In this document: in pieces, positions 15,672 to 46,290 of the stretch
How positions within the stretch are numbered: position 1 is the stretch's first letter
How the letters are laid out: each line of letters begins with the position of its first letter
Source: Bacteroidales bacterium
GTDB lineage: Bacteria > Bacteroidota > Bacteroidia > Bacteroidales > VadinHA17
Assembly: GCA_034003345.1 (NCBI GenBank)
Contig: JAVEYS010000002.1
Location: forward strand, 9,415 to 73,414
DNA length: 64,000 nt
Direction of reading: 5' to 3'
Notes under the pieces: model-generated
Databases searched by the model: none
Told to the model about the DNA's origin: nothing
The model's input: the letters and a program-made list of their open reading frames with translations, nothing else
Position numbers and translations under genes: made by a program

Positions 15672-16685
15672 TTAATACGATTTCGAGGAAACGGAATCCC
15701 TGTAAATAATTTTTGGCTTCAGCAAGACCTGGATGGTTGATCTGGGTTCGTCATTAAGCATTCCAAGCAAAATCCGGATAGCTACCTGACTGATCTCAAG
15801 TAATGGTTGAGCCACACTTGTTATCGGGACGGAAAGTAGTTCCAGGTAGGGTGAATCATCAAAAGTAATTAGGGAAATATCTTCCGGGACTTTTATGGCT
15901 TCTTCCCGCAAAGCCTTCAGACAACCTATGGCAATAGTACTGCTTAGAGTAAAAATAGCTGAAACATGAACCCTGCTCTGAAGGAGTAGTTTTGTTTCCA
16001 GGTATCCGTTTCGCTCATCAAACATCTCTCCCTCGATATATTTTTCCTTGATACCCGCATCATCCAGTGCTTTTACATATCCCTCCACCCGTTTAATATT
16101 GGAAATCGAAAACTTATTTCCCTGAATGCAGGCAATATTTCTGTGCCCCATATCAATCAGATACTTCGTAGCCATGTATCCCCCTATAAAATTATCAGTT
16201 GCCACGTAGGGAATATCCAAATTCTCAAAATACCTGTCGATACACACGATAGACAGGCCACTGTCATGCAACTTCTTTAATTCCTTTGAATCTTTACCAC
16301 AAGGTGCAATTATAAGTCCTTCAATATTTCTCGACCTCAGTCTTTTTAAAGATTCAGCCTCAATATGTTCATCTTCATCACTTTCATTTAAGATCGTCAT
16401 AAATTCAAGTTTCCTCAACTCTCTGTTCAGATCACTGGCAATCTTTGCAAAAAACATATTGCTTACTGTGGGAATAGATAATGCAATAGTATTGCTCTTC
16501 CCTGACCTCAGGTTTGAGGCATATTCATTTGGAATGTAGTTAAGTTTTTTTGCCATTTCTTTTACACGTAACTGCGTTTCCTTTCCAATCCGGTACTGAT
16601 CTGCCTTCCCATTCAGTACCCTTGAAATTGTAGTTACCGAGAGTTTCAACTCTTTTGCTATATCTGAAATCGTCTGTACTGGCAT
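15672..16685 (-). CDS. LacI-family transcriptional regulator (probable PUL regulator)
   Basis: N-terminal HTH ISDIAKELKLSVTTISRVLNG plus a periplasmic-binding-protein-like sugar-binding core. 337 aa, divergent from susC. Confidence 0.88.
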   Translation of the reverse strand: MPVQTISDIAKELKLSVTTISRVLNGKADQYRIGKETQLRVKEMAKKLNYIPNEYASNLRSGKSNTIALSIPTVSNMFFAKIASDLNRELRKLEFMTILNESDEDEHIEAESLKRLRSRNIEGLIIAPCGKDSKELKKLHDSGLSIVCIDRYFENLDIPYVATDNFIGGYMATKYLIDMGHRNIACIQGNKFSISNIKRVEGYVKALDDAGIKEKYIEGEMFDERNGYLETKLLLQSRVHVSAIFTLSSTIAIGCLKALREEAIKVPEDISLITFDDSPYLELLSVPITSVAQPLLEISQVAIRILLGMLNDEPRSTIQVLLKPKIIYRDSVSSKSY

Positions 16686-16895: not shown

Positions 16896-19800
16896 ATGAG
16901 GAGATTAAAAACCGGGGGCTCATTAATGCTTAAAGCACTTCCCCCTCTATTACTGATGTTCCTGTTGTTTTCAGGCCTTCCAAACAAGGCTGACGCACAG
17001 GGAGTACAGGGAAATCTAATCAAGGTTACCGGAAGTGTAATGGACACAGAAGGACAACCAGTAATCTCGGCTACCGTTGTTATCAAAGGGACTAACAGAG
17101 GTACCGTAACAGATGCAAACGGTAAGTTCAATATTGAAGTCGACAGCAGGGATGCTACCCTGGTATTTTCATTTGTCGGTATGACCACCCGGGAAATTAC
17201 CGTTGGAACCCAATCTGATATTCCGGTCATTATGGAATATGACTTTGCAGGACTTGAAGAGGTGGTTGTTATTGGATATGGTACTTCCAAAAAGAGTGAC
17301 CTGACAGGTTCTGTAGCTTCCGTTAAGGGAGAGGAACTTACATCCCTGAGCACTCAGGATGTCCTCAGCAGTATGCAAGGGAAAATGTCGGGTGTGCACA
17401 TTGCCCCGAATTCAGGAGCTCCGGGATCCGGATCAACCGTCAGAATCAGGGGAGTGGGGACCATTAACAACAGTGATCCTATTTATGTAGTAGATGGTTT
17501 TCAGATAAGTGACATTGCCTACTTGTCTGTAAACGATATTGAGTCTATTGAGGTATTGAAGGATGCTTCCGCAACTGCCATCTATGGTTCAAGAGGAGCA
17601 AATGGCGTTATCCTCGTCACAACGAAAAAGGGTGGCACGGGTGGAATAAATGTAACTGCCAACTATAATTATGGCATACAGACCGCCACGAAACAAATTG
17701 ATATGCTTAACGCATGGCAATTTGCAACCCTATACAGGGAAGCCCATGAAAATTCAGGCCTGACACTTTCAACCTACGATCAGGAAGTAACTCAGCTGGT
17801 ATTAGACAATCACTCGGTAGGAACTAACTGGCAGGAACAGATTTTCAGAAAAAACGTTCCCATCCAGAACTTTAACCTGAGTATTACTGGCAAAGAAGGA
17901 AGAAACTCTTATCTGGGTTCGCTCTATTACAATACAAGAGAAGGCCTGGTGAAGAATAATAATTTCTCACAACTGAACCTGCGCCTTCACAATACATATG
18001 CATTGACTGATAAAATAAAATGGGATGCTGATTTAACCTATTCCACCAGCAACCGTCATGATATCAATGGAGGCGCACTTACCTCTTCCCTATATATGGA
18101 CCCGATCTCAACCGCATGGGATGAATCTACAAATAACTACGGCGTCAGGATGTTCAAACAAATTGAGGCCACCAATCCAGCCCTGACCATTGACAATTCC
18201 AAAAATGACAGATTGTCAACGAACAAAAGATTTGTAGTAAATACCTCTCTGACAATTGAAGACCTGTTTACAACTGGGCTCTCCTTCGTCACAAGGTTTG
18301 GTTATGACGAGCAAACGATCGCCGGACAAGGCTACTGGCCAGCATATTTTATTGATGCAACAACGTACAATCTTGAAAGTAGCCTCTACATGAACAACAG
18401 GGTTATGGACTCCAAACTCTGGTCAAGCTATTTCAGTTATGATAAAAGGATTGGACTACATTCTTTCAATGCTATGATTGGAAATGAAATGCAGAGTTTC
18501 CAAAACAACTACGTATCAGGAACGGTATATGATATACCCGATGATCCCAGGCAGATGTATTTCGATCTTGCCAGTAATCTCGAAAGAAAGTCCATTAATG
18601 GAAATTTCACTGAATCAGCTTTGCTCTCATACTTTGCAAGAGTCAACTACAAATATAAAGACAGGTACATGATCACGGGAACAATAAGGGCTGATGGCAG
18701 CTCAAAATTCCTGAAAGAGAATCGGTGGGGTGTTTTCCCATCAGTTGCTGCAGCATGGGATATCAAAAAAGAATCATTCATGGATAATGTAAATTTCATG
18801 AGTGGACTCAAGTTGCGTGCCGGCTGGGGCGTCGTTGGTAACCAGAACTCACTTAGTAATCCGTATGTTTATGCTTCCACAATTACTTCGGAAAGCAACT
18901 CCTATGTGATAGGTGGAACCATTGTGAATGGTTATTATCCGGCCGAACTGGCAAACAAGAAGATAAGATGGGAATCAACCGAAACATTTAATATAGGTGT
19001 TGACATGGGTCTCTTTGATTATAAGATTTCACTTGAGGCCAATATTTTCCAGAACACAACCAGGGACATGATTGCAACACCCCTGGCACCGTTGTATGTC
19101 GGATACAACGCCGTACCCTCAAACATTGGTTCAATGAGAAACAGAGGACTTGAAATTGCTCTGGGACACAAAAATGTGATAGGCAACTTCAGTTACAGTA
19201 TTAACTGGAACATCACAACCATAAACAATAAGGTACTTAGTCTTGGAACATCGACAGCCATAAGATCAGGGATGTTACCCAGGCTGGATCCGACAACTTA
19301 TACAGATGTTGGAACTGAAATTGGAGCATTCTACGGACTTGCAACTAATGGAATTTTCACACAGGCGGACCTTGATGCATTGCACGCTGCACATCCGGAA
19401 TACCAGCCTACTGCCCAACCCGGCGATGTGTGGTTTGTTGATTATGACGGTGATTTTATGATAGATAAGAACAATGACCGTCAATACCTGGGAAGCGCAG
19501 TGCCCGACTTCACTTCAGGTCTCAATATTGAAATGAAGTGGAAGCAGATTGACCTGTCTGCCTATATGCTTGGATCATTCGGAAACGAGATTGTCAGCGG
19601 TCAGTATGTATACATCTTCGGGTCAAATATAAAGAGCAACTGGCATGCAGATATGTGGAACCGTTCCCATGGGGATGTAATTACAGATATCCCAAGATTG
19701 GATATAGCTGACATTAACGGTAACACAAGCACATTCTCCGATCGTTTTGTTGAGGATGGCAGTTTTGTCAGGCTGAAGAACATACAAGTGGGTTACACAC

Positions 19801-19997
19801 TCCCGGCTTCAGTGGGTAATAAATTAATGATTAGTTCTTTGAGGTTTTATGTTTCAGCAGACAACCTCCTGACATTAACCAAATATTCCGGTTGGGATCC
19901 TGAACCCGTATCATTCGGCACACTCAACGGTGGTGTTGATTACGGTACATATCCTTTAGCAAGGACAATTTCACTCGGATTAAGTCTTAACTTTTAA
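16896..19997 (+). CDS. SusC/RagA-family TonB-dependent outer-membrane transporter
   Basis: 1033 aa with a signal peptide, a carboxypeptidase-regulatory-like domain (VTGSVMDTEGQPVISATVVIKGT), a plug/TonB-box region (VVVIGYGTSKKSDLTGSV) and a C-terminal barrel ending ...LGLSLNF. SusD follows. The true start may be M11 at 16926. Confidence 0.92.
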   Translation: MRRLKTGGSLMLKALPPLLLMFLLFSGLPNKADAQGVQGNLIKVTGSVMDTEGQPVISATVVIKGTNRGTVTDANGKFNIEVDSRDATLVFSFVGMTTREITVGTQSDIPVIMEYDFAGLEEVVVIGYGTSKKSDLTGSVASVKGEELTSLSTQDVLSSMQGKMSGVHIAPNSGAPGSGSTVRIRGVGTINNSDPIYVVDGFQISDIAYLSVNDIESIEVLKDASATAIYGSRGANGVILVTTKKGGTGGINVTANYNYGIQTATKQIDMLNAWQFATLYREAHENSGLTLSTYDQEVTQLVLDNHSVGTNWQEQIFRKNVPIQNFNLSITGKEGRNSYLGSLYYNTREGLVKNNNFSQLNLRLHNTYALTDKIKWDADLTYSTSNRHDINGGALTSSLYMDPISTAWDESTNNYGVRMFKQIEATNPALTIDNSKNDRLSTNKRFVVNTSLTIEDLFTTGLSFVTRFGYDEQTIAGQGYWPAYFIDATTYNLESSLYMNNRVMDSKLWSSYFSYDKRIGLHSFNAMIGNEMQSFQNNYVSGTVYDIPDDPRQMYFDLASNLERKSINGNFTESALLSYFARVNYKYKDRYMITGTIRADGSSKFLKENRWGVFPSVAAAWDIKKESFMDNVNFMSGLKLRAGWGVVGNQNSLSNPYVYASTITSESNSYVIGGTIVNGYYPAELANKKIRWESTETFNIGVDMGLFDYKISLEANIFQNTTRDMIATPLAPLYVGYNAVPSNIGSMRNRGLEIALGHKNVIGNFSYSINWNITTINNKVLSLGTSTAIRSGMLPRLDPTTYTDVGTEIGAFYGLATNGIFTQADLDALHAAHPEYQPTAQPGDVWFVDYDGDFMIDKNNDRQYLGSAVPDFTSGLNIEMKWKQIDLSAYMLGSFGNEIVSGQYVYIFGSNIKSNWHADMWNRSHGDVITDIPRLDIADINGNTSTFSDRFVEDGSFVRLKNIQVGYTLPASVGNKLMISSLRFYVSADNLLTLTKYSGWDPEPVSFGTLNGGVDYGTYPLARTISLGLSLNF

Positions 19998-20008: not shown

Positions 20009-21733
20009 ATGAATAAAACAAGATATAGAGGAAAAATACAAAACGTATTTATATTCTTCTGCTTATCACTATTAATTGCCTCCTGTACTGATTTCCTGGA
20101 TGTGGAACCCAGCAGTCTGAGGACAGGTGATAACTTCCTCAACAACGACGAAAATGCCGAGATGGCAATAAACGCTGCTTATAATATTCTTGCCGGACAC
20201 GAACGCTGGCAGGGTGGACTCCTTGAATCTTCCGCATTCTATATCGGTGAGATTCTCGCTGATTATGCTGAAATGGGTGCACATAAAGGCGATTATGATG
20301 ACCTTGAAAGAATGATCGAATGGAGACCCTATACCGATGAAATCATTCTTTTTGGTATTTGGGACAGGTCTTATGAAGGGATATACCGGTGCGACTATGT
20401 ACTGGATGGGCTGCCTGATGCACCCATCACTCCTGCACTCAAAACAAGGATTATGGGAGAAGCTTATTTCCTCAGGGGAATGAATATCCTCCGGCTGGTG
20501 AAGGTTTTTGGAAACGTGCCGATTGAAGATGGGATCATCCTTCCCGATGAATATGGGAAAATCCCTCAGAAAACCATGCATGAAGGATTCGAAATTGCAG
20601 CTGAGTGTTTCAGACAGGGAATGGTCAGGCTACCAAAACAGAGCGAATATGCTGCCAGTGACATGGGCAGGGCTACAAAAGGAGCTGCACAAGCCATGCT
20701 GGCAAGACTATATATGCTGGAGGCGGGAATGGATAAAGATGCTGTCACCAACCCATGGGATTCTGTCTACAAATACACTGATCTGGTTATTAAATCACAA
20801 GAGTATGGTTTGATTGATAACTACGCCAGACTGTTTGAACCCGAAGGTGAAAACAGCTATGAATCGATTTTCGAACTCCAGTTCGGCGTTTCAGCTTCAT
20901 TAAATATCGGTTTGGGTAACAATCGTTCTGCCATCGGAACAACTAACCAGATACGGTGTGGAATCAGGTCCGCTGAAAACGAAGGACTTCCGGGAGGATG
21001 GGGTTATTATCAACCTTCTCAGCTCCTGGTAGACGAATATGAATCAAAGGACCCAAGACTAAGCTGTGCAGTTTACGGACCAAATTTCAATGACGGAATA
21101 GTGTATGGGATCAAGCGTAATTTCAACCTGTCTGATATGATGTCAGAATATTATAACCGCCATCTTGCAATTGATCCGGTTCTGGAAGCTGAGCAGCTAG
21201 CCACCTCTGCTTCTAACAGTTCACGCAATGTCAAAGTGATGAGATATGCCGATGTATTATTAATGCATGCCGAAGCTGCTTATCATCTCGTACGTGAAGG
21301 GGAAGCACTTGCTGATCTAGAGATGATCAGACAAAGAGCAAGGCACAGTACCTATTGTAAGGGTTACAAACTGGGATCTACAGCTTATGATCCGACCGGA
21401 TGGACCGGAAATCTTCCTGTAGTTAATGCTTCAGGACAGGATCTTCTGGAGGCCATATGGCATGAGAGAAGTGTTGAGCTTGCGCTGGAAGATATGCGTT
21501 ACTGGGACCTGGTTCGTACCGGGAGGTACCTTGACAGGCTGGACGTGAAAAAAGCAAATTCCAAAGATCCTATGGCCACTGCACTGAGATTTTCAACTAT
21601 CGACCTGAGAGGTAATTGCCAGGCTCGCTGTATTGAAGGACCAAGAGGTGTCAACGATATTCCAATCTTTCCATTACCTGGCGCAGAAGCCATCAAATGG
21701 AATCTTAAGCAGATTATTGATTTGTATTTGTAA
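20009..21733 (+). CDS. SusD/RagB-family nutrient-binding outer-membrane lipoprotein
   Basis: 574 aa with a lipoprotein signal (LLIASC). Position directly after SusC and the length and composition are typical of the family. Confidence 0.88.
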   Translation: MNKTRYRGKIQNVFIFFCLSLLIASCTDFLDVEPSSLRTGDNFLNNDENAEMAINAAYNILAGHERWQGGLLESSAFYIGEILADYAEMGAHKGDYDDLERMIEWRPYTDEIILFGIWDRSYEGIYRCDYVLDGLPDAPITPALKTRIMGEAYFLRGMNILRLVKVFGNVPIEDGIILPDEYGKIPQKTMHEGFEIAAECFRQGMVRLPKQSEYAASDMGRATKGAAQAMLARLYMLEAGMDKDAVTNPWDSVYKYTDLVIKSQEYGLIDNYARLFEPEGENSYESIFELQFGVSASLNIGLGNNRSAIGTTNQIRCGIRSAENEGLPGGWGYYQPSQLLVDEYESKDPRLSCAVYGPNFNDGIVYGIKRNFNLSDMMSEYYNRHLAIDPVLEAEQLATSASNSSRNVKVMRYADVLLMHAEAAYHLVREGEALADLEMIRQRARHSTYCKGYKLGSTAYDPTGWTGNLPVVNASGQDLLEAIWHERSVELALEDMRYWDLVRTGRYLDRLDVKKANSKDPMATALRFSTIDLRGNCQARCIEGPRGVNDIPIFPLPGAEAIKWNLKQIIDLYL

Positions 21734-21747
21734 CAAACCTATTTGAC

Positions 21748-23307
21748 ATGAGAAAAAGAATATTTTTATTCTTAGCATTAATAGCAATAGCGGGTTTTGC
21801 CTTGCAAAATTGCACCCAGGAACAAGAATGGGGAGAAAACTATGATATCAATTTCCCCGTACCTGTCATTGATTCTATTTCAGCTTCCCGTGTAACAGTT
21901 GGTGACACCCTGCATATATTGGGTGATTTCACAAAAGTAACCAGTGTTACAATCGGAGGTGGATATACTACGATCGCTTCAGTATCAACTGACTCGCTTC
22001 AAATGTCCGTCATAATCACAGAAACATGTGTATCAGGGCCACTTGTTGTAACAAACGTCTACGAAAAAAGAGGACATTATAGAGCCGACATTTTCGTTGA
22101 AGGAAACTATGGTGGACCAGTAATTCCCGATCGTATCCAGATACTTGACTTTTCATCTGGCGGTGCACTGCCGGCATGGACAAAAAACACCTGGTCCGAG
22201 GCCCGTGACCTGGCAGAGAGCGGTTATGATCTTAATGATCTGTCCGTTCCTGCGGGATATGATCACTACTATTCAATGAACGACTTCCTGCTTGCTGATG
22301 ACGCGAACACCGCATACGGTTATTTTAACTCGGATAATAATGGTGCCGGATTCGATATAAGCATGTATGACGATCCATATGTCTCCGTACTTATCAATAC
22401 GGGAAGTCATGCCGCCTATTTAAGCCTCTCAATGGAAGCATACAGTCATAATGATTTTAATCCATCACAATCACCCGGTAGCGTATTTGCAAATGGAGAA
22501 CAACAGGTCTACTTCCAGACTAATGGCAAGTGGCTGTGGTATACCTTCAAGCTGAGTGCTGTTCTGGGTGGTGATGTTCCGGATATTCTGAATTCTCCGG
22601 GTCTGTTCGTCCGTGCCGGATGGGATTACCCGTCAAGTCTAACATATCCGGGTTATGAACTGAATATCGTTGAAATGATTGTTACCGATGGCCCAATGAG
22701 GAACACCGAAGGTATCGGAATATTGAACTTCGCAAATCTGGGACCCCTTCCGACGTGGGAACCCAACACATGGAGTGAGGCTAAAGAACCCGATGAAATG
22801 GGCTTCAATATTAATCCCGCGATTGAACCTCCCACCGGATATGCAAACTATTACGCCATAAATGATAAGGACCTTTTCCCGCCGGATGAACCGGCAGGTC
22901 AGGGAGGAAACATACCTTATGGCAACTATATTTCAGATAATGGAGGTGCCGGTTTTGATATAAGCTCTATTGCCGACCCCTACGTATCTATTCTAATGAA
23001 TACAGGTGATGAGGATATATGCTACCTTAGTTTTGTGATAGACGGTCAGACCAAAGATTTCCAGCCGTCACAGTCACCCGGAGGCACCTTTGCCAACGGC
23101 GAAACCAAGCATTATATGAAAACCGACGGTGAATGGTTATGGTATACATTCTCACTGACAGACATTATGGGGGGAACGGTTCCGTCAACCTTTGTAAGTG
23201 CCGGTCTGTTCTTCCGCAATAGCTGGGACTACGGGGCAGATATTTATCCCGGATTCCAGATTAATATTGTAAGCATGTCAATTACGGAAGGACCCCGACT
23301 TAATTAG
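21748..23307 (+). CDS. PUL-encoded surface lipoprotein: IPT/TIG-like domain plus two tandem homologous domains of about 190 aa (candidate surface glycan-binding protein)
   Basis: Lipoprotein signal (FALQNC). Residues 130-316 and 323-516 align by eye (ILDFSSGGALPAWTKNTWSEA / ILNFANLGPLPTWEPNTWSEA; NGAGFDIS in both; PSQSPG in both; WLWYTF in both). It occupies the SusE/F-like position. Confidence 0.6.
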   Translation: MRKRIFLFLALIAIAGFALQNCTQEQEWGENYDINFPVPVIDSISASRVTVGDTLHILGDFTKVTSVTIGGGYTTIASVSTDSLQMSVIITETCVSGPLVVTNVYEKRGHYRADIFVEGNYGGPVIPDRIQILDFSSGGALPAWTKNTWSEARDLAESGYDLNDLSVPAGYDHYYSMNDFLLADDANTAYGYFNSDNNGAGFDISMYDDPYVSVLINTGSHAAYLSLSMEAYSHNDFNPSQSPGSVFANGEQQVYFQTNGKWLWYTFKLSAVLGGDVPDILNSPGLFVRAGWDYPSSLTYPGYELNIVEMIVTDGPMRNTEGIGILNFANLGPLPTWEPNTWSEAKEPDEMGFNINPAIEPPTGYANYYAINDKDLFPPDEPAGQGGNIPYGNYISDNGGAGFDISSIADPYVSILMNTGDEDICYLSFVIDGQTKDFQPSQSPGGTFANGETKHYMKTDGEWLWYTFSLTDIMGGTVPSTFVSAGLFFRNSWDYGADIYPGFQINIVSMSITEGPRLN

Positions 23308-23424: not shown

Positions 23425-24408
23425 ATGAAGATAAAAATAAATCAAATTTTACGGGTGCTGGTATGTTGTATCTTCATTATACCTTGTTCCTGTTCCGGGA
23501 CCGAAAATAGCGGAAATCAAAATGTACCTCCGGATCCGGTGGAAAAAATACCCCAAAAGGTAATTCTTGATACAGACATGTGCCTAGATGTCGATGATGT
23601 TGGAGCACTTGCAACATTAAATGCTCTTGCAGATCAGGACGAAGCGGAAATTCTGGCTGTATGCTTCAACGAGGTACACAAAAGCGGAGCAGCTGCAATA
23701 GATGCTATCAATACCTGGTATCACCGCGGCAACATCCCTGTAGGAATCTATAAGAAGAGCCTTTATGCACCCGATAGTTCTCCCTACCTGAATGCCCTCG
23801 CCGGCTTTCCAAATGACATCCCATCCGACCTTGCTCAGGTTCCTGATGCACACCAGGTTTATATTGATGTTCTGAACGCACAACCAGATTCATCTGTAAA
23901 AATAATTAGTCTGGGATTCCTGAATAACCTGGGTGACCTGCTCGAAAGCCACCCCGAACTTATCGCAAGGAAAGTAAAGCAACTGGTGATCATGGGAGGC
24001 CTGAACAACGATGATTTCAATCTTGTGAGACACGGACTGGTAGAAACTTCCCAGAAAATACTGACTGATTGGCCTACCCCTATTGTTATAAGTCAGCCTG
24101 GCTCAGGAATTCTGACAGGAGAGACGCTGGAAAGCTCACCAGTGAATAATCCCGTAAGAGAGGCTTATTTCAGATGGTTCAACAATTCTTTCCAGGGACG
24201 TCCGAGTTGGGACCAGATAGCTGTTCTTTTTACACTGAAAGGAACTGCATATTTTAACGAAATATCTGTAGGAACTGGCTCCCTCAAAAATGGATTTTCA
24301 TATGATTTGGTACCAGGCTGGAGAACCTATTTTACTACAAAGCTCTCTGATCAAGAGTACGCATATATTATAAATAACCTTATGACTAAAACTCCTAAAT
24401 CGAAATAA
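23425..24408 (+). CDS. Exported nucleoside-hydrolase-fold protein (NH-1)
   Basis: Signal peptide, then KVILDTDMCLDVDDVGAL, which matches the N-terminal DxDxxxDD metal/ribose-binding pattern of inosine-uridine nucleoside hydrolases. By eye it is about 60% identical to the C-terminal domain of ORF 29455..31404. Confidence 0.65.
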   Translation: MKIKINQILRVLVCCIFIIPCSCSGTENSGNQNVPPDPVEKIPQKVILDTDMCLDVDDVGALATLNALADQDEAEILAVCFNEVHKSGAAAIDAINTWYHRGNIPVGIYKKSLYAPDSSPYLNALAGFPNDIPSDLAQVPDAHQVYIDVLNAQPDSSVKIISLGFLNNLGDLLESHPELIARKVKQLVIMGGLNNDDFNLVRHGLVETSQKILTDWPTPIVISQPGSGILTGETLESSPVNNPVREAYFRWFNNSFQGRPSWDQIAVLFTLKGTAYFNEISVGTGSLKNGFSYDLVPGWRTYFTTKLSDQEYAYIINNLMTKTPKSK

Positions 24409-24409
24409 A

Positions 24410-25408
24410 ATGTTCATAGTAAGTAATTACTTTCTGGCTGTCACATTTTGCATAATAACCATGTTATGCTGGGGTTCCTGGGCTAACACCCAGAAACTGG
24501 CAACAAAGAACTGGGGATTCCCTCTTTTCTACTGGGACTACACTCTGGGAGTCATTTTACTCTCCCTTATTTTAGGATTGACCATGGGAAACCACGGGGA
24601 CCAGGGTCAGGGATTTTTTCAAAATCTTTTTAGTGCTTCTCTCACAGCATTTATGTATGCCTTGCTTGCCGGCGTTATTTTCAATATCGCAAACCTGCTG
24701 CTTGTAGCAGCCATCGACCTTGCCGGCATGGCAATCGCATTCCCAATCGGTATAGGAATAGCACTTGTGCTAGGTGTGATCGTTAACTATGTCGCTACAC
24801 CTGTTGGAAACCCCATCCTCCTTTTCTCAGGAGTGGGATTGGTAACTCTTGGGATAATTTTCGATGCACTCGCATACAGAAAAATATCTACCGGGTCTGC
24901 TACTTCCAAAGGGATTCTTATTTCAGTGGCTGCAGGTATCCTGATGGGCTTTTTCTATCGCTTCGTAGCAGCATCAATGTCTGAGGATTTCGTGAATCCA
25001 ACAGCTGGACTCTTTACTCCATATACTGCAGTTTTTGTTTTCTCCATCGGGATTTTCCTGTCAAATTTTATTTTTAACTCCTTCTTCATGTACAAGCCAA
25101 TAAACGGCACCAGAACCACTTATCGCGATTATTTTAAACAGGGAAGTCCAAAGCTCCACCTGATTGGAATAGCCGGCGGAGTTATCTGGTGTATTGGCAT
25201 GCTCTTTAATATGATTGCCTCAGGTGAAGCCGGATTTGCCATCTCTTATGGCCTCGGACAAGGGGCAACCATGGTAGCTGCCATTTGGGGAGTTTTTATC
25301 TGGAAAGAATTTAAAAATGCTCCGAAGAAAATCAATCCACTGATATTTCTGATGTTCTTTTTCTTCATCTCCGGTATCGCATTGATAATTTTAGCTAAAA
25401 CTATTTAA
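24410..25408 (+). CDS. Sugar permease, GRP/RbsU-GlcU-like (DMT superfamily); probable ribose importer
   Basis: 332 aa with about 10 hydrophobic helices and no ATPase partner. It sits directly upstream of the ribokinase. The family assignment comes from memory of RbsU-type proteins plus context. Confidence 0.5.
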   Translation: MFIVSNYFLAVTFCIITMLCWGSWANTQKLATKNWGFPLFYWDYTLGVILLSLILGLTMGNHGDQGQGFFQNLFSASLTAFMYALLAGVIFNIANLLLVAAIDLAGMAIAFPIGIGIALVLGVIVNYVATPVGNPILLFSGVGLVTLGIIFDALAYRKISTGSATSKGILISVAAGILMGFFYRFVAASMSEDFVNPTAGLFTPYTAVFVFSIGIFLSNFIFNSFFMYKPINGTRTTYRDYFKQGSPKLHLIGIAGGVIWCIGMLFNMIASGEAGFAISYGLGQGATMVAAIWGVFIWKEFKNAPKKINPLIFLMFFFFISGIALIILAKTI

Positions 25409-25413
25409 AGAAT

Positions 25414-26337
25414 ATGGGAAATATTGTTGTTGTTGGAAGCAGTAATACCGACCTTGTCGTAACCACACTCCATTTGCCGCAACCCGGAGAGACACTGCTG
25501 GGTAACGAGATCAACATCCATCCCGGAGGTAAAGGAGCTAACCAGGTCGTCGCCACTGCAAGGGCCAACGCAAAAGCTACATTTATTGCCAAAGTTGGCA
25601 AAGACGACTTCGGACAAAAAGCCATTGAAGGATATAAATCAGATAATATCAACGTTGACCACATAATCATTGACCCTCAGCATCCTTCAGGTATTGCAGT
25701 GATTCTTGTGGAAGAGTCAACCGGACAAAACTCTATCGTGGTAGTTGGCGGAGCAAACAATTTTCTTTCTGTCGGAGATATTAAGAATACCGAATCCGTC
25801 ATTGCTGCTGCAGATACTTTGCTGCTCCAGCTGGAAATACCTGTTGATGTTGTGGAATTTACCCTCAGAATTGCTAAGAATAACAGGGTTAAGACCATCC
25901 TCAATCCGGCTCCCGCCAAAGAGCTCCCGGATAAACTGCTTCGAATGGTTGACATCATCACTCCTAATGAATCTGAAACCAAATTCCTGACAGGGATTGA
26001 ACCGGACTCGGAGGAAAACATACAAAAAGCTGCTTGTCTGTTACTTAAGAAAGTGAATGAGGCAGTAATTATTACTCTGGGTGACCGCGGGGCCTATTTC
26101 TGTGAAGTGAACGGTGACATGGGCTTTATTCCTTCTACCAAAGTAGAGGCTGTCGACTCCACTGCTGCAGGAGATGTCTTTAACGGTTACCTTGCCGCTC
26201 TGCTCGCAGGAGGATCTGACCTTAGAAACGCCATTTCACTTGCCAACAAAGCAGCGGCAATATCAGTAACAAGGAAAGGGGCCCAGCCTTCTATTCCAAA
26301 ATTGAGCGAGATATTGACTAATTTTGAAGTATGCTAA
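25414..26337 (+). CDS. rbsK: Ribokinase (PfkB family)
   Basis: 307 aa with VVGSSNTDLV, GGKGANQ and DSTAAGDVFNGYLAALL motifs characteristic of ribokinase. No signal peptide. Confidence 0.88.
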   Translation: MGNIVVVGSSNTDLVVTTLHLPQPGETLLGNEINIHPGGKGANQVVATARANAKATFIAKVGKDDFGQKAIEGYKSDNINVDHIIIDPQHPSGIAVILVEESTGQNSIVVVGGANNFLSVGDIKNTESVIAAADTLLLQLEIPVDVVEFTLRIAKNNRVKTILNPAPAKELPDKLLRMVDIITPNESETKFLTGIEPDSEENIQKAACLLLKKVNEAVIITLGDRGAYFCEVNGDMGFIPSTKVEAVDSTAAGDVFNGYLAALLAGGSDLRNAISLANKAAAISVTRKGAQPSIPKLSEILTNFEVC

Positions 26338-26360: not shown

Positions 26361-28097
26361 GTGAAAATTCATAGATTCATCTTATCAGTACTGATCCCCT
26401 TTCTGCTGTTGAGCTGCAGCTCCAAAAATGAGGTTAGAAAAATAACTCTTGAAGAATTCCGCAGTAAAATGACTGCAGGATGGTTAGGACAAATGGCAGG
26501 TGTGGGTTGGGGGGCTCCGACTGAATTCAAATACAGCGGCATGATCATCCCCCGGGAAGATGTACCAGTCTGGGATTCATCAATGATAAACCAACAAAAC
26601 CAGGATGATATATATGTTGAAATGACCTTCCTTAAGACATTGGAGGACCATGGTTTTGATGTATCAATCCGTCAGGCAGGTATAGACTTTGCAAATAGTA
26701 AATACCAACTTTGGCACGCAAACTATTACGGACGGGAAAACCTTCGTTCAGGAATAGCCCCACCATTTTCCGGGCACCCTGATTATAATGCTCACGCAGA
26801 TGATATTGATTACCAGATAGAAGCCGATTATTCCGGGTTGATCTCCCCTGGCATGCCACAGATGGTTATCGACCTGGGAAACAAATTCGGCAGAATGATG
26901 AATTATGGTGATGGACTCTATGGAGGACAATTTGTGGGAGCCATGTATGCCGAAGCTTTCTTTGAAACAGATATTCACAAGATCATCAGTTCCGGACTTG
27001 CATGCATACCCGAAGATAGCCAGTATGCTGAAGCCATAAGGGACGTACTGAAATGGTATGAGGAGAATCCCTCTGATTGGACAAAAACATGGCAGCTCAT
27101 CGAGAATAAATATAATCTTAACCATGATTATAGAAAATTCAGCTGCTCAGGTGCTGATTCGAAATTTAATATCGATGCTAAAATCAACGGAGCATATATC
27201 GTCATGGGACTGCTTTATGGCAAGGGAGATATGGATGAGACTATAATTATATCCATGCGGTGTGGTCAGGATTCAGACTGCAATCCTTCAAACGCTGCAG
27301 GCATTCTGGCTACTTCACTCGGCCTTGAGAATCTCCCTGAAAAATATAAAATCGGCATAGACGACACTACGCACTTCTCATACACTGCATACGATTTCCC
27401 ATCCCTGATAAACGTATGCGAACAGCTTGCCCTGAAAGCCATTAAAAGGGCCGGTGGTTCTGTCGATAAAGATGAGGCAGGAAAAGACCTGCTTGTGATC
27501 CCCGTTAAAAATCCCGTCAGGAACAATCTTGAACAGTGCTGGAATCCTTCTGAACCTGAAAGTGATATCCACTTCTCGAAAGAAGAAATGGATCAGATCA
27601 CGGTGAAAGTCAGAAATGCCGAAGATTTTATCAAAAACTGGGAAGTGGCAGGTCCCTACTCAAGACAAGATGCAGAAGTGAATGATCTGTTTGATATTGA
27701 ATTCGCACCGGAATTAAAAAACCAACAGATTGAATGGAAGGTATTGCCGGTAGATGAAGGTGAATATGATAAGCGTATAATAAATCTGGAGAATATATTT
27801 GGAACCGAGCAATGCGTTGCATACTTAAGAACAACATTAATCTCACCTGTTAGTCAGACGGTTATTTTTGAAATAGGTTCCGATGATGGCATCAAGATAT
27901 GGTTGAATGGTCAGCTTGCCCACCAGCACAATATTGTCAGAGGGTACAGCCAGGGTGACGATGTTTGCAAAGTGACACTCATGGAAGGGAATAATGATGT
28001 TCTGATGAAAATTACACAGGGCATTGGCGGATGGGCCGCATCCCTGGTAGTCACAGACATCGACGGGCAGCCTCTGAGATTGACCTCTATAAACTAG
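26361..28097 (+). CDS. Exported ADP-ribosylglycohydrolase-family lipoprotein with C-terminal beta-sandwich-like domain
   Basis: GTG start and lipoprotein signal (FLLLSCSS). The region of about 350 aa carries DDIYVEMTF and CGQDSDCNPSNAAGIL, a GxDxD-type metal motif as in DraG/ARH enzymes. The C-terminal region of about 160 aa (WEVAGPY...GSDDGIKIWLNG...) looks like a lectin/PA14-like jelly-roll, but that assignment is uncertain. Confidence 0.65.
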   Translation: MKIHRFILSVLIPFLLLSCSSKNEVRKITLEEFRSKMTAGWLGQMAGVGWGAPTEFKYSGMIIPREDVPVWDSSMINQQNQDDIYVEMTFLKTLEDHGFDVSIRQAGIDFANSKYQLWHANYYGRENLRSGIAPPFSGHPDYNAHADDIDYQIEADYSGLISPGMPQMVIDLGNKFGRMMNYGDGLYGGQFVGAMYAEAFFETDIHKIISSGLACIPEDSQYAEAIRDVLKWYEENPSDWTKTWQLIENKYNLNHDYRKFSCSGADSKFNIDAKINGAYIVMGLLYGKGDMDETIIISMRCGQDSDCNPSNAAGILATSLGLENLPEKYKIGIDDTTHFSYTAYDFPSLINVCEQLALKAIKRAGGSVDKDEAGKDLLVIPVKNPVRNNLEQCWNPSEPESDIHFSKEEMDQITVKVRNAEDFIKNWEVAGPYSRQDAEVNDLFDIEFAPELKNQQIEWKVLPVDEGEYDKRIINLENIFGTEQCVAYLRTTLISPVSQTVIFEIGSDDGIKIWLNGQLAHQHNIVRGYSQGDDVCKVTLMEGNNDVLMKITQGIGGWAASLVVTDIDGQPLRLTSIN

Positions 28098-28410: not shown

Positions 28411-29424
28411 ATGATCATCAATACTAAAAACATCTTCCCAGCTCTCGCGGTAATTTGCCTGCTGGTATATTCATGTACCGGGAAGAATCAGGCAAACAGT
28501 AAGCAGGATCACAGGATCCCTGTAATCCTTGATACTGATGCAAATAATGAACTTGATGATCAACATGCCATTGCCTACATGTTGTTCAGCGGACAAACAT
28601 TTGACGTGAAAGGAATCACAGTAAACAGAACATATAATGGCGGTACAATAGATGATCAGTTTGCTGAGGCTGAACGGATTGTGAAGTTATGCAACTGCGT
28701 TTCAAAAATCAGGATATATAAAGGGGCAAGTAATACTTATGATGAGATCGCCGATCATATCGCAGAATCTGATTTCGATGGCGCCGAAGCAGTTAATTTT
28801 ATTATTGATTGTGCCAATTCAACGGAAAATCAAAAATTAGTGTTGCTGCCGATCGGCAAATTAACCAATATTTCACTCGCGCTGAAGAAAGATCCCTCAA
28901 TTGCTTCAAAGATAAGGATCGTATGGCTTGGCACGAATTATCCGGAACCGGGGGAATATAATTTTATCAATGATACAACAGCCTTAAAACCCATTCTCGA
29001 ATCAAACGTGGAATTTGAAATAGTGATGGTCAGGTATGGCAAATCAAGTGGAACCGATGCGGTTAAAGCCTATCTGAAAGATTTTCAGGTAAAAATGCCA
29101 GGGAAAGGACCAAAAATCAGTGAACCGGTAACCGGCCGGCACGGAGATTCGTTCAACTGTTTCGGAGACTATTCAGTCAATCTGTTTGAAAATTTCCGTG
29201 GAAATCCTCAAACCAGACCGCTCTTCGATATGGCTGCAGTTGCCATTGTTAAAAATCCGGAATGGGCTGACAAAGTTATTATAGGTGCACCTCTCTATGA
29301 AAATGGGAAATGGATCAATCAGCCTGATAATCAAAGAAAAATCGCTATCTGGGAAAACTTTGTTACTGATTCCATCATGAAGGACTTCTATTATACAATG
29401 GAGAACTACAAATTAGCTGAATAA
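28411..29424 (+). CDS. Inosine-uridine-preferring-type nucleoside hydrolase lipoprotein (NH-2)
   Basis: Lipoprotein signal (LLVYSC), then the canonical IUNH N-terminal motif PVILDTDANNELDDQHAIAYML. 337 aa. Confidence 0.75.
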   Translation: MIINTKNIFPALAVICLLVYSCTGKNQANSKQDHRIPVILDTDANNELDDQHAIAYMLFSGQTFDVKGITVNRTYNGGTIDDQFAEAERIVKLCNCVSKIRIYKGASNTYDEIADHIAESDFDGAEAVNFIIDCANSTENQKLVLLPIGKLTNISLALKKDPSIASKIRIVWLGTNYPEPGEYNFINDTTALKPILESNVEFEIVMVRYGKSSGTDAVKAYLKDFQVKMPGKGPKISEPVTGRHGDSFNCFGDYSVNLFENFRGNPQTRPLFDMAAVAIVKNPEWADKVIIGAPLYENGKWINQPDNQRKIAIWENFVTDSIMKDFYYTMENYKLAE

Positions 29425-29454: not shown

Positions 29455-31404
29455 ATGTTTAAGTCCACACATATAGTTACCGGTTTACTTCTTGTGTTTA
29501 CCGCCATCTGCTTACAAGGTTGCTATCAAACAGTCATTGAAAGCGGTAGCCGTGAAAAAGTGAAAATCTGGATGGAAGCAGAAAGCGGCCAGATTGAAGA
29601 TCCTATGGAGGTTCATTCTAAAGAAGATGCGTCAGCAGGACAATTTATTGAAGTTGAGCCAGGAAACAACAGTATCGAAACTGCTCCGGGAGACGGCTTT
29701 ATTACCTACAGGTTCAAAATACGGGATAGTGGCAGATACAAAATCTGGGGGCGAGTGATTGTATGCATGGATGATGAAGATGCTTTCTGGGTGAAAATGG
29801 ATGAAGGGGAGTGGGTCAAATGGAAGGATATACAAGTGGGATGCGACTGGCATTGGGATGAAATACATGATAATGACAATAATAACCGCGTTATGATTTA
29901 TGATCTTGAAAAGGGGATACACACTCTTAAGATCACTTACGGTATGGACCAGACCAGATTGGATAAAATAGTCCTTACAAATGACCTCAAATTTGTCCCT
30001 GAACAGACAGGCCCTGGAATAACAGCACGGTACAACTTTAATCCACCAACACCAATCTTGAATGAAGAAGTAATATTTGATGCATCTGCATCATCCAGTT
30101 CGGAAGGTTCAATAAAGAGTTACAAATGGGATCTTGGAGACGGGAATGTCTCTACAGGGCCCAGATCTCTTCATAAATATGATAGCGCAGGCGTTTATAC
30201 AGTCTGCCTGACAACAGAAGATAATGCCGGACTAACAGGCATTGTGGAAAAAGAGTTGACAGTATATGCCGATAAGCCTGTAGCTGATTTTGTTTTCTCG
30301 CCTGACAGGGCTCATTCGGATGAAAACATTGCTTTCAACGCAGCTTCCTCTTTTGATCCGAATGGGAATATTGTTTCATATTCCTGGGATTTTGGAGATG
30401 GGAACAATGGAGATGATGAACATCCTGTTCACTCTTACAGGAATGTGGGAGAATATACAGTAAAGCTAACCGTCACTGACAATGAAGGTCATGAGGCTGT
30501 TAATCTCCAACTGGTGACAATAATACCAGATAATCCCAAAAAGGTGATATTCGAGACAGATATGTGTCTTGATGTGGATGACGTGGGCGCACTAGCAATG
30601 CTTCACGCGATGGCAAACCAGGGAGAAGCAGAAATCCTGGCAGTTTGCTATAATGAGGTACATCCAGATGCTGCTGCTGCCATTGACGCCATCAATACTT
30701 GGTATGGCAGGGGAGATATCCCGATAGGTGTATACAAGAAACCGTTGGCCCAGCCTGATGCATCAGCCTACCTGAAAAGTCTGTCTCAGTTCCCTAATGA
30801 CATCAACAATAGCAGCATCCCGGATGCAGTTAGCGTTTACCGTGCAGTGCTTTCTAAACAACCCGACAACTCTGTTACAATCATAAGTGTCGGATTTCTT
30901 AATAATCTCTCCGATTTATTAATTGAATCACCTGACCTCGTTGCCAAAAAAGTAAAGGAAATTGTAATTATGGGAGGAATTAACAATGATGGCTTCAACC
31001 TGTCCCGTCACGAATTTGTTTCCGCTGCTGAAAATGTTTTAGCCAATTGGCCTTCACCCCTCGTCATAAGCCAGCCCGGGTACCAGATACTAACCGGTAA
31101 AAACTTGATAAACTCATCTGATAATAATCCTGTCAGGACAGCATATTATTCGTTTTTCTACTCCAATTTCTGTAACCGCCCCAGCTGGGACCAGATAGCA
31201 GTACTTTACGGTGTGAGAGGTTGCTCTGACTACTTTTTAAATGCTTCTGACGGAAAAGGCAGGTTAATAAACGGATATACATGGGAGATGAAAGAGGGAT
31301 ACCGGACTTATATTAAAACAATTTACCCGGCAGAAACTTATGCAAAAACCATCGAAAAGCTCATGCTTGCTACTCCGCTTGATAAACCTGCGCTTAGCAA
31401 GTAA
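29455..31404 (+). CDS. Multidomain lipoprotein: CBM-like domain, 2 x PKD domain, C-terminal nucleoside-hydrolase-fold domain (NH-3)
   Basis: Lipoprotein signal (ICLQGC). Residues 35-177 look like a galactose-binding-like/CBM module (WMEAESG...ASAGQFIEV...YKIWGRV...LDKIVLTND). Two PKD signatures follow (YKWDLGDGNVSTG...YTVCLTTEDNAG; YSWDFGDGNNGDD...YTVKLTVTDNEGH). Residues 362-649 (VIFETDMCLDVDDVGAL...) are paralogous to NH-1. Confidence 0.7.
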   Translation: MFKSTHIVTGLLLVFTAICLQGCYQTVIESGSREKVKIWMEAESGQIEDPMEVHSKEDASAGQFIEVEPGNNSIETAPGDGFITYRFKIRDSGRYKIWGRVIVCMDDEDAFWVKMDEGEWVKWKDIQVGCDWHWDEIHDNDNNNRVMIYDLEKGIHTLKITYGMDQTRLDKIVLTNDLKFVPEQTGPGITARYNFNPPTPILNEEVIFDASASSSSEGSIKSYKWDLGDGNVSTGPRSLHKYDSAGVYTVCLTTEDNAGLTGIVEKELTVYADKPVADFVFSPDRAHSDENIAFNAASSFDPNGNIVSYSWDFGDGNNGDDEHPVHSYRNVGEYTVKLTVTDNEGHEAVNLQLVTIIPDNPKKVIFETDMCLDVDDVGALAMLHAMANQGEAEILAVCYNEVHPDAAAAIDAINTWYGRGDIPIGVYKKPLAQPDASAYLKSLSQFPNDINNSSIPDAVSVYRAVLSKQPDNSVTIISVGFLNNLSDLLIESPDLVAKKVKEIVIMGGINNDGFNLSRHEFVSAAENVLANWPSPLVISQPGYQILTGKNLINSSDNNPVRTAYYSFFYSNFCNRPSWDQIAVLYGVRGCSDYFLNASDGKGRLINGYTWEMKEGYRTYIKTIYPAETYAKTIEKLMLATPLDKPALSK

Positions 31405-37083: not shown

Positions 37084-39102
37084 TTGAAAAAGAGATTCTA
37101 CGATATTGATCCATGGCTTGATCCTTTCAGGAGTACTATTGAGGCACGGCTGACCTATTTAGAGGAGAGGGAAAAGCTTATTACCAACGGCCGCAAGCTG
37201 TCAGACTTTGCCAACGGGCATCATTGGTACGGTCTGCACCATACTGAAAAAGGATGGGTCTTCAGGGAACATGCCCCCAACGCCACAGGTATAACCCTCA
37301 CCGGGACTTTTTGTGAATGGAAGGAAGATGACCGTTACATACTTCACAGAACAGGTGATGGCGACTGGATTGGTGAGTTTGGTGAAGAGATGATGTCACA
37401 TGGTGACCTGTATAAGATGCATGTCAGGTGGAACGGTGGCAGCGGTGAACGAATACCTGCCTATGCCACACGTGCTGTCCAGGATGACGTAACAAAGATT
37501 TTTTCTGCACAGGTATGGCACCCTTCAGAGGGCTACGTCATGAACGAACCCTCACCGCCTCCGCCGGCATCACTCCTCGTTTATGAGGCCCACGTTGGTA
37601 TGGCTACGGAGGAAGAGAGGACAGGCACCTACCGTGAGTTCACCACAGATATCCTTCCCCGAATTAAGAACCTGGGATACAACACTATACAGTTGATGGC
37701 CATACAAGAGCATCCCTACTACGGCTCTTTCGGTTATCATGTATCAAGCCTCTTTGCTCCATCATCAAGGTTCGGCACAGCTGACGAGCTGAAAGAACTG
37801 ATTGACACTGCTCACGCTATGGGCCTCAGGATCATAATGGACCTCATCCACTCTCATGCCGTGGCCAACACCCTTGAAGGGCTGGGCCTTCTTGACGGTG
37901 ACCCGGGGCTCTATTTTCATTCGGGGGCAAGACGTAAACATGTGGCATGGGACTCGCTCTGTTATGACTACGGCAAGCCCGAGGTAAACCATTTCCTTCT
38001 CTCCAACTGCAAATACTGGCTTGAGGAGTTCCATTTTGACGGGTTCCGGTTCGACGGAATAACAAGCATGCTCTATTATGACCACGGCCTGGGAGCTGAC
38101 TTCGTCTCGTACAAACAGTATTATGACGGCAATCAGGATTCCGATGCCATCGTCTACCTCTCCATGGCCAACAAGCTCATCCATGAATTCAATCCCGGAG
38201 CCACTACCATTGCCGAGGAGATGAGTGGTATGCCCGGTCTGGCCGCACCTGTTGACACCGGCGGGATAGGATTTGATTTCAGGCTGGCTATGGGCGTGCC
38301 TGACATATGGATCAAGATGGTAAAGGAGATACCCGATGAGAACTGGGATCTGGGCTACCTGCTTCATGAGCTCACCCAGCACCGCCCTGAGGAACATGTG
38401 GTATCTTATTGTGAGTCACACGACCAGGCCCTTGTAGGCGACAAGACGCTCCTCTTCAGGCTGGCAGACAAAGAGATGTACACCTCAATGAGCATACAGA
38501 CGCCAAGCCTGATCATTGACCGCGCCTTGGCTCTGCATAAAATGATTAGACTCTTCACCTTCATGGCTGCCGGTGGCGGCTACCTGACTTTCATGGGTAA
38601 TGAGTTCGGCCATCCTGAGTGGATAGACTTCCCCAGAGAGGGTAACGGCTGGAGCTATAAGTATGCCCGGAGACAGTGGAGCCTGTCTGACAATAAGCTT
38701 CTCAGGTACCGCTATCTGAATGAGTTTGACAGGGCTATGTTAGAGACTGGCAGACGTCATGGTATTCCGCAGCTGCAGATGACAGAGGCGCTGACTGTCA
38801 ACAATGCAGACAAGATTATTGCTTTCCGCCGTGGTGATCTGCTTACGGTGATGAACTTCAATACTTCCGTATCATTTACCGATTACGGGATACCCGTTAA
38901 AGGTAAGTTCCGGATAGTCCTCAGCTCAGACGACCCGCTCTTTGGCGGACAGGGACGCATTGACACTAACCAGCCCTATTTCTCATTGCCAGACCAGGGT
39001 CACTACGGCGTTACAGCACCGCATCACCTCAAACTGTACCTCCCCGCAAGAACTGCAATAGTAATGTGGCAGGAGAAGATCAAGACCATAATGGACCTTT
39101 AG
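37084..39102 (+). CDS. glgB: 1,4-alpha-glucan branching enzyme (GH13, eukaryote-like subgroup)
   Basis: 672 aa with GH13 conserved regions IMDLIHSHA, FDGFRFDGITSM, IAEEMSG and CESHDQA, plus GNEFGHPEWIDFPREGN typical of branching enzymes. TTG start per the track. Confidence 0.88.
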   Translation: MKKRFYDIDPWLDPFRSTIEARLTYLEEREKLITNGRKLSDFANGHHWYGLHHTEKGWVFREHAPNATGITLTGTFCEWKEDDRYILHRTGDGDWIGEFGEEMMSHGDLYKMHVRWNGGSGERIPAYATRAVQDDVTKIFSAQVWHPSEGYVMNEPSPPPPASLLVYEAHVGMATEEERTGTYREFTTDILPRIKNLGYNTIQLMAIQEHPYYGSFGYHVSSLFAPSSRFGTADELKELIDTAHAMGLRIIMDLIHSHAVANTLEGLGLLDGDPGLYFHSGARRKHVAWDSLCYDYGKPEVNHFLLSNCKYWLEEFHFDGFRFDGITSMLYYDHGLGADFVSYKQYYDGNQDSDAIVYLSMANKLIHEFNPGATTIAEEMSGMPGLAAPVDTGGIGFDFRLAMGVPDIWIKMVKEIPDENWDLGYLLHELTQHRPEEHVVSYCESHDQALVGDKTLLFRLADKEMYTSMSIQTPSLIIDRALALHKMIRLFTFMAAGGGYLTFMGNEFGHPEWIDFPREGNGWSYKYARRQWSLSDNKLLRYRYLNEFDRAMLETGRRHGIPQLQMTEALTVNNADKIIAFRRGDLLTVMNFNTSVSFTDYGIPVKGKFRIVLSSDDPLFGGQGRIDTNQPYFSLPDQGHYGVTAPHHLKLYLPARTAIVMWQEKIKTIMDL

Positions 39103-39103
39103 A

Positions 39104-43333: not shown

Positions 43334-43398
43334 ATATCTAATAATCAATTAATACGCCTTAACGCATGAAAGTTAAACAATCATTTGACCCTCAACAA

Positions 43399-46289: not shown

Positions 46290-46290
46290 A

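Follow-up and report, generated by a model that had tools for sequence, protein, structure and literature searches.

What does an enzyme of the ADP-ribosylglycohydrolase (ARH) family do when it is exported as a lipoprotein and encoded among genes for ribose utilization? We address this question for a gene at positions 26361-28097 of a 64,000-nucleotide stretch of DNA from a Bacteroidales bacterium (assembly GCA_034003345.1, contig JAVEYS010000002.1), the whole of which is referred to below as the window. The product of this gene, hereafter the ARH protein, is built of three parts: a lipoprotein signal, an ARH-fold catalytic domain and a PA14-like C-terminal domain. The reading that we favour, at a probability of roughly one half, is that the ARH protein hydrolyses ribosyl bonds in a metal-dependent manner and sets ribose free in the periplasm or at the cell surface. 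The features of the gene and its product on which this reading draws are the following.

26361-28097, forward strand: the ARH gene, a complete open reading frame of 578 amino acids (aa) with a GTG start (open-reading-frame listing, full-length homologues).
26361-26417, forward strand: signal peptide with lipobox L-L-S-C, residues 1-19, with Cys19 at 26415-26417 (translation).
26478-27341, forward strand: ADP_ribosyl_GH domain (PF03747), residues 40-327 (Pfam); the conserved catalytic region continues to about residue 400 (27560).
26523-26525, forward strand: E55, within G47-x3-G51-x3-E55-F, the counterpart of ARH3 Glu41 (G33-x3-G37-x3-E41) by motif spacing.
26601-26609, forward strand: Q81-D82-D83, the predicted first metal motif, aligned by hhalign to T76-D77-D78 of ARH3, with Gln in place of Thr.
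27270-27284, forward strand: D304-S305-D306-C307-N308, the predicted second metal motif, counterpart of D314-T315-D316-T317 of ARH3, with Cys in place of the last Thr.
27621-28094, forward strand: PA14-like beta-sandwich, residues ~421-578 (AlphaFold2 (AF2) domain model, Foldseek).

The reading frame given in an earlier note on this DNA, made from the sequence alone, was confirmed, and every string quoted there was found at its place in the translation: FLLLSCSS (Cys19), DDIYVEMTF (D82-D83), CGQDSDCNPSNAAGIL (C301-L316), WEVAGPYSRQD, FEIGSDDGIKIWLNGQ and GGWAASLVVTD. That this is a real gene follows from a strong Pfam match, a 100% identical protein cluster present in public data and thousands of full-length homologues; a scan for promoters and terminators around the gene stayed at background level, such a scan being uninformative for Bacteroidota. 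By rule-based inspection, the N-terminus MKIHRFILSVLIPFLLLS-C19 has the positive n-region, hydrophobic h-region and lipobox Cys of a signal peptidase II (SPII) signal, in keeping with the export that the note had proposed. Furthermore, in an alignment of 42 homologues the N-termini align as signal peptides and the Cys19 column is kept in at least 90% of the sequences, which supports both the GTG start and the lipoprotein status; a wrong start codon or annotation artefact was ruled out, as the N-terminus is common to the homologues. The LES surface-export motif of Bacteroidota lipoproteins is an acidic run at +2 to +5 after the lipidated Cys. In the ARH protein this Cys is followed by SSKNEVRK, with a single acidic residue at +6 (C-S-S-K-x-(D/E)-F-R-K in homologues), and inspection gave no clear LES motif after Cys19. 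Because this motif is lacking, the protein may sit on the periplasmic face or at the surface.

Membership in the ARH family was borne out by comparison with profile hidden Markov models: PF03747 matches the ARH protein with 105.3 bits (gathering score 26.2; E 6.3e-30) over model positions 2-286 of 287, and the same domain was found in 42/42 and 51/51 aligned relatives. No NCBIfam model matched the protein. Sequence searches of the PDB, both with the ARH protein and with a 42-sequence profile, found no ARH structure, so that the protein represents a diverged branch of the family. An alignment-based AF2 model (mean predicted local distance difference test score (pLDDT) 87.9, predicted template modelling score (pTM) 0.83) is all-alpha over residues ~30-400, and Foldseek comparison with the PDB returned ARH3 as the best match (6hgz, E 1.5e-6; also 6g1q), with further matches to DraG (2woc, 3g9d), the ARH-related 2cwc of T. 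thermophilus and ARH1 (3hfw). For ARH3, DraG, ARH1 and 2cwc the Foldseek probability was 1.0, with target-normalised template modelling (TM) scores of 0.52-0.68 at an identity of 10-14%. The structural check that the earlier note had called for therefore yielded an ARH-like all-alpha fold. Relative to ARH3, ~70 extra residues lie between the end of the Pfam domain and the PA14-like domain.

To place the metal site, the ARH protein was mapped by hhalign and hmmsearch onto the human ARH3 sequence, itself checked against PDB 6d36; conservation was then scored over 126 catalytic domains (representatives of clusters at 50% identity, down to ~38% identity), and motifs were counted in 82 homologues from species-genome loci. 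The segment GQDSDC (G302-C307) aligns with GGDTDT of ARH3 (hhalign; hmmsearch E 8e-9), the hhalign alignment being reliable only at the xDD and DxDx motifs, with mid-domain confidence near zero. D304 is present in all 126 domains, D82 and D306 in 125 each, D83 in 124 and E55 in 123, each of these five acidic positions thus being at least 97% conserved. The Thr ligands T76 and T317 of ARH3 are replaced by Q81 (87/126) and a near-invariant C307 (120/126), the latter followed by N308 (122/126). At the level of whole motifs, QDD[ILM][YF] occurs in 79 and CGxDSDCN in 77 of the 82 genome-locus homologues. The expectation that the Asp and Thr metal ligands of the family would be found here thus held for the acidic residues and failed for both Thr ligands: judged from sequence, the acidic core of the predicted binuclear site is intact and its Thr ligands are changed. 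The exchange of Thr for Cys may, speculatively, point to a softer metal or to other chemistry.

The lectin-like module that had been proposed for the C-terminus was recovered as a beta-sandwich of high confidence when the last ~160 residues were modelled alone (AF2, pLDDT 90.8), and its top structural matches are PA14 sugar-binding domains. In Foldseek comparison with the PDB, the best of these is the PA14 domain of the M. primoryensis RTX adhesin (6m8m; E 2.6e-5, TM 0.43, 95 columns), followed by PA14 inserts of glycoside hydrolase (GH) family 3, a GH2 N-terminal sugar-binding domain of similar score and the yeast Flo/Cea adhesins. The domain has an invariant core, G506-x-D508-D509-G510...W514, and appears to share with the RTX adhesin, GH3-insert and Flo/Cea PA14 domains both the beta-sandwich and an 'sDDG.k.W.nG' core; relative to the PA14 adhesin domains, it scores below gathering and aligns with TM 0.43-0.55 over ~95-100 columns. 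Pfam PA14 (PF07691) itself stayed below threshold (18.2 bits vs 24, E 0.002), matching at model positions 48-85 only, confined to the core around G506-S-D-D-G-I-K-I-W-L-N-G, and a sub-threshold match was likewise seen in 15/42 homologues. Given the sub-threshold Pfam score and the low TM, 'PA14-like' is the label that is justified. In PA14 lectins, the DD pair holds a Ca2+ ion that ligates sugar diols, and from its modelled structure the C-terminal domain of the ARH protein probably binds sugars as well. A homologue search with this domain alone returned only 8 short fragments and was uninformative on other partners.

The evidence for ribose comes from the genes around the ARH gene, which are given here in window coordinates.

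15672-16685, reverse strand: LacI/RbsR-like regulator (Pfam LacI and Peripla_BP_3; NCBIfam RbsR NF047341, 229 bits vs a cut-off of 382).
16896-19997, forward strand: SusC (TIGR04056, 880 bits).
20009-21733, forward strand: SusD (SusD_RagB, SusD-like_3).
21748-23307, forward strand: lipoprotein-like protein of 519 aa that directly follows SusD and belongs to no known family, N-terminus ...ALQNC.
23425-24408, forward strand: nucleoside-hydrolase-like lipoprotein NH1 (IU_nuc_hydro, E 6e-12), N-terminus ...IIPCSC.
24410-25408, forward strand: RbsU/GlcU-type sugar permease (PF06800, PF07168; TIGR00776 weak).
25414-26337, forward strand: ribokinase (TIGR02152, 352.9 bits vs a cut-off of 299.65).
28411-29424, forward strand: nucleoside-hydrolase-like lipoprotein NH2 (IU_nuc_hydro, E 2e-24), after a 313-nt gap downstream of the ARH gene.
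29455-31404, forward strand: PKD-PKD-nucleoside-hydrolase lipoprotein NH3 (IU_nuc_hydro, E 4e-11; PKD_4, E 4e-41).

With SusC and SusD 6-9 kb upstream on the same strand, the ARH gene does lie inside a polysaccharide utilization locus (PUL), as had been claimed, and this cluster is a rus-type PUL as defined by Glowacki et al., containing a SusC/SusD pair, a ribokinase, a permease and a LacI/RbsR-like regulator. Within it, the ARH start follows the ribokinase stop after 23 nt, and the N-termini of NH2 and NH3 are lipobox-like (VYSC and LQGC). The adjacent ribokinase, the RbsU-like permease and the three nucleoside hydrolases support the earlier proposal of an extracytoplasmic ribosyl-bond substrate. 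Annotation with Pfam and NCBIfam revealed no Nudix, pyrophosphatase or phosphatase gene in the PUL, and the window annotation no toxin gene near the ARH gene. Glowacki et al. described 70 rus configurations across Bacteroidetes, found rus PULs to be ribose-induced, and recorded LacI as the second most frequent rus regulator and ADP-ribosylglycohydrolases (ADP-RGHs) among the variable, recurrent rus enzymes (bioRxiv 10.1101/574913). In that work, the ADP-RGH of B. xylanisolvens XB1A served as a search query and ADP-RGHs were listed by annotation (10.1101/574913).

Several other features of the cluster and window were recorded alongside these. In NH1 and NH3, the match to IU_nuc_hydro covers no more than the first half of the model, and NH3 carries, in addition to its two PKD domains, a ~190-aa N-terminal region with a weak GH115_C-like match. 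The 519-aa lipoprotein matched no Pfam or NCBIfam family; compared on position, size and SPII signal alone, it resembles RusGH of B. thetaiotaomicron (BT2807), a 539-aa surface lipoprotein of unassigned GH family that is most active on pNP-ribose (10.1101/574913). Further along the window, at 37084-48243, lies a glycogen-metabolism cluster unrelated to the ARH gene, with a GH13/CBM48 enzyme, a GH57, a GT4, a debranching enzyme and a 1414-aa protein in which glycogen synthase and glucan phosphorylase domains are joined (39104-43348, reverse strand).

Gene order was then compared across 83 genome loci around ARH homologues (numbered with the prefix L), with neighbours identified by tblastn within 8 kb. 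Locus L002 repeats the order of the window from SusC through the ARH gene, together with a nucleoside hydrolase and, in the same position, a 76% identical counterpart of the 519-aa lipoprotein; L086, L084, L003 and L010 show the order LacI, nucleoside hydrolase, ARH, permease and ribokinase or close variants of it. Both permease and ribokinase lie within 8 kb of the ARH homologue in 12/83 loci, which are distributed over Bacteroidota, KSB1, Calditrichota, Caldisericaceae, Planctomycetota and Acidobacteriota (at least six phyla). At L046 (Planctomycetota) and L077 (Acidobacteriota), the ARH gene directly adjoins permease and kinase, and no nucleoside hydrolase was matched within ~8 kb. These minimal modules suggest that the ARH product can itself be imported and phosphorylated and would thus be free ribose, not ADP-ribose.

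Other neighbours vary among these loci. An alpha-L-fucosidase stands beside ARH-clade genes in two unrelated genomes (L001:13283-14869, reverse strand; L046:3961-5454, forward strand), with a fucose isomerase and an FGGY kinase also among the neighbours at L001; these fucose genes hint at other sugars or mixed glycans as the targets of some members of the clade. Most Planctomycetota loci show a conserved housekeeping neighbourhood and no ribokinase; the FtsH, BamD-like and DsbD-like genes upstream look like housekeeping synteny. At 19 loci between L021 and L075, nearly all from Planctomycetota, one to three tandem ~325-aa proteins with a twin-arginine signal and no Pfam family are encoded near, and usually directly downstream of, the ARH-clade gene as its conserved partner (for example L067:7376-8350, forward strand). 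PF06439 proteins (3-keto-disaccharide hydrolase / DUF1080; ~220-230 aa) lie beside or close to the ARH homologue in three unrelated contigs (L003:8147-8839, L084:10892-11551 and L085:7241-7927). ARH-family paralogues beside the clade orthologue at L001:11780-13243 and L011:4488-6974 (both forward strand), the former a 487-aa lipoprotein with the different site variant TDD...GWDADN, suggest several distinct exported ARH subclades.

The clade to which the ARH protein belongs is large. A search of 5.8 billion proteins gave at least 7988 matches at E<1e-5; the best 120 of these are nearly all of 530-610 aa, of the same architecture and 58-85% identical, the named ones among them being 'ADP-ribosylglycohydrolase family protein' from Marinimicrobia, Labilibaculum and KSB1. 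When one genome was scanned for each species, at least 544 genomes proved to contain a relative, the closest among those listed being the metagenome-assembled genomes (MAGs) 'Bacteroides sp. SM23_62' and 'uncultured Bacteroidales' (67-68%). Among the matches listed, proteins that match over their full length and include the PA14-like domain come from Bacteroidota, KSB1, Calditrichota, Lentisphaeria, Caldisericaceae and Marinimicrobia, and the match is limited to residues ~1-430 in MAGs of Planctomycetota, Verrucomicrobiota and Acidobacteriota. An exhaustive HMMER search of 1.84 billion representatives recovered 2932 clusters at E<=1e-3, of which 445 reached E<=1e-30; lengths range over ~220-2390 aa. 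In a sample of 51 mostly long, multidomain clade proteins, PF03747 is fused to PKD in 25 and elsewhere to Laminin_G_3, F5_F8_type_C, type IX secretion system (T9SS) sorting tails, fn3 and esterases, as well as to carbohydrate-active enzyme (CAZyme) modules of the types GH43, GH92, GH106, GH5, GH84 and CBM96. An N-terminal signal-like hydrophobic segment was present in 107/122 clade representatives by a crude hydrophobicity test. From these fusions and N-terminal segments, the clade appears to be exported, with a modular build like that of secreted carbohydrate-active enzymes. The statement that ARH enzymes are normally cytoplasmic accordingly holds for the characterised members only, the ARH gene of the window belonging to a very large exported clade.

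Taken together, we propose the following course of events for the window. Ribosylated material would enter via SusC/SusD; the ARH domain, as part of an outer-membrane-anchored lipoprotein, would bind the cis-diol of a ribose at a two-metal site formed by E55, D82, D83, D304, D306 and C307 and hydrolyse the bond at ribose C1, giving free ribose. In parallel, beta-N-ribosides would be hydrolysed by the cluster's three nucleoside hydrolases, the RbsU-like permease would import the ribose, and the ribokinase encoded immediately upstream of the ARH gene would phosphorylate it. In characterised ARHs (ARH3, DraG), the distal ribose is bound through its 2'' and 3'' hydroxyls by two metals, and the C1'' bond is cleaved. 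A clade that kept this core, lost similarity elsewhere and gained modules resembling carbohydrate-binding modules fits a ribosyl hydrolase that accommodates an unsubstituted ribofuranose as its -1 sugar. Catalysis and the ribose product are predicted here from fold, motifs and gene context, and the metals, the anomeric and aglycone specificity, the side of the membrane and the ligand of the PA14-like domain are likewise putative assignments.

Several observations weigh against this reading. The ARH protein is only 10-14% identical to characterised ARH enzymes, so that a substrate cannot be transferred by homology, and those enzymes release ADP-ribose rather than ribose. The register between E55 and Glu41 of ARH3 was set manually by motif spacing, hhalign placing it 3 residues off with very low confidence, and the clustering of the proposed metal ligands in three dimensions is a prediction. 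The PA14 assignment lies under the Pfam threshold with a TM of 0.43, and ribokinase linkage is seen in only 12/83 loci, the others lying beside fucose genes (L001, L046) or housekeeping genes. Finally, no assay of any ADP-RGH or clade member was found in the literature searched, Glowacki et al. included.

The alternative that survives best, which we nonetheless regard as unlikely, is a classical extracytoplasmic hydrolase of ADP-ribosyl bonds, poly(ADP-ribose) (PAR) or O-acetyl-ADP-ribose, which would remove ADP-ribose from the ADP-ribosylated proteins, PAR or NAD-derived compounds that lysed cells release and leave its conversion to ribose to pyrophosphatases and phosphatases encoded elsewhere. 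Strong PF03747 membership, the ARH3/DraG-like fold and the conserved acidic site residues all suit such an enzyme, and Glowacki et al. suggest that rus systems target ADP-ribose and poly-ADP-ribose and report that B. thetaiotaomicron uses ADP-ribose in a rus-dependent manner (10.1101/574913). The gene content argues otherwise, as neither this PUL, lacking Nudix, pyrophosphatase and phosphatase genes, nor the minimal modules L046 and L077 encode an enzyme that would turn ADP-ribose into ribose. So do the low identity (10-14%) to ADP-ribose-binding ARHs and the replacement of both Thr ligands, and CAZyme-like fusions would be unexpected for a protein de-ADP-ribosylase.

It is quite improbable that the ARH protein acts as a glycosidase on a sugar different from ribose, such as another cis-diol furanoside or a deoxyhexoside, in which case the clade would be a GH-like family of multiple specificities and its place in a rus PUL would reflect a mixed glycan substrate. 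While 71/83 loci are without ribokinase and the catalytic domain is fused elsewhere to GH43, GH92, GH106 and GH5, the window gene itself directly follows a ribokinase gene in a cluster whose enzymes are all ribose-related, and its close orthologue in L002 retains rus synteny. Against the fucose isomerase, FGGY kinase and alpha-L-fucosidase of L001, the fucosidase of L046 and the GH140-like apiosidase family proteins near the ARH homologues of L001 and L084, which would all agree with another sugar, the near-invariant motif set across the clade argues for one conserved -1 subsite. A non-hydrolase, either a degenerate ARH-fold binder (cf. ARH2 and jellyfish crystallins) or an ARH-type protein conferring immunity to ADP-ribosylating toxins, is hardly credible. 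The replacement of two canonical Thr ligands and the existence of ARH-fold immunity proteins (8za7, a Foldseek match) speak for it; against it stand acidic site residues conserved at 97% or more over a deep clade, a catabolic operon and enzyme-like modular fusions, and for want of any toxin gene nearby in the window the toxin-immunity reading was rejected.

A ribosyl hydrolase of this kind would differ from the known systems in several respects. ARH3 (ADPRS), an ADP-ribosylserine and PAR hydrolase, has in common with the ARH protein the all-alpha fold and the motifs GxxxGxxxE, xDD and DxDx followed by a small-residue helix; at 12-14% identity, the ARH protein carries Q81 for T76 and C307 for T317 and, unlike ARH3, is exported, lipidated, joined to a PA14-like domain and encoded in a catabolic operon. 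ARH3 itself acts inside the cell, and its product is ADP-ribose. DraG and ARH1, which also have the fold in common with the ARH protein (2woc, 3g9d, 3hfw), are cytoplasmic regulators that act on Arg-ADP-ribose, cleaving the alpha-ribosyl bond at C1'' with a binuclear metal site; in contrast to the ARH protein, they are without a signal peptide, a module resembling carbohydrate-binding modules or a link to ribose catabolism. The closest precedent lies in the rus ADP-RGH genes, in which, as in the window, a PF03747 gene shares a SusC/SusD cluster with genes for a ribokinase, a permease, nucleoside hydrolases and a regulator of the LacI type. These genes were published with no statement on export, a C-terminal domain or an altered metal motif, all of which are part of the account given here, and that work concerned a gut isolate, whereas the window comes from an uncultured, sediment-type Bacteroidota. 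The work of Glowacki et al. reportedly appeared later in Cell Host & Microbe.

The association of ARH genes with rus PULs is therefore already published and not new. The view that an extracytoplasmic role is not well described for the family stands for its biochemistry and no longer for gene content, where the link to ribose PULs is on record (10.1101/574913). Our literature searches returned nothing relevant on exported or CAZy-classified ARHs or on ribofuranosidase. Nor was there, in the literature searched, any account of the combined lipoprotein, ARH and PA14-like architecture, of the QDD/DSDCN site, of the clade as a very large, exported group of CAZyme-like modularity, or of the cross-phylum module of ARH, permease and ribokinase.

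Beyond the single gene, we consider it possible, and short of likely, that the exported QDD...DSDCN clade constitutes an unrecognised glycoside-hydrolase-type family on the ARH fold, namely a secreted modular (alpha-)ribofuranosidase with a Cys-containing two-metal site that frees ribose from glycans or conjugates. Such a ribofuranosidase family, if real, would occur widely, in Bacteroidota, Planctomycetota and KSB1 as well as in further phyla of sediments and the sea, and its activity would show which natural substrates are targeted by rus PULs with a diversified set of enzymes. Glowacki et al. left open both the ribose nutrients that rus PULs target and the role of their ADP-ribosylglycohydrolases, and the ARH gene of the window offers a clean representative of a very large exported clade with which to approach them. 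Should the enzyme prove to be a classical ADP-ribosyl hydrolase, bacteria would be shown to forage ADP-ribosylated material. If, as we favour, ribose is released directly, the clade would become a candidate for a new family of glycoside hydrolases, with a Cys that is unusual at the metal site, and its gene a marker for extracellular ribose turnover in sediments and gut. The ARH fold would then serve, besides the reversal of ADP-ribosylation, a glycosidase-like function in nutrient scavenging.

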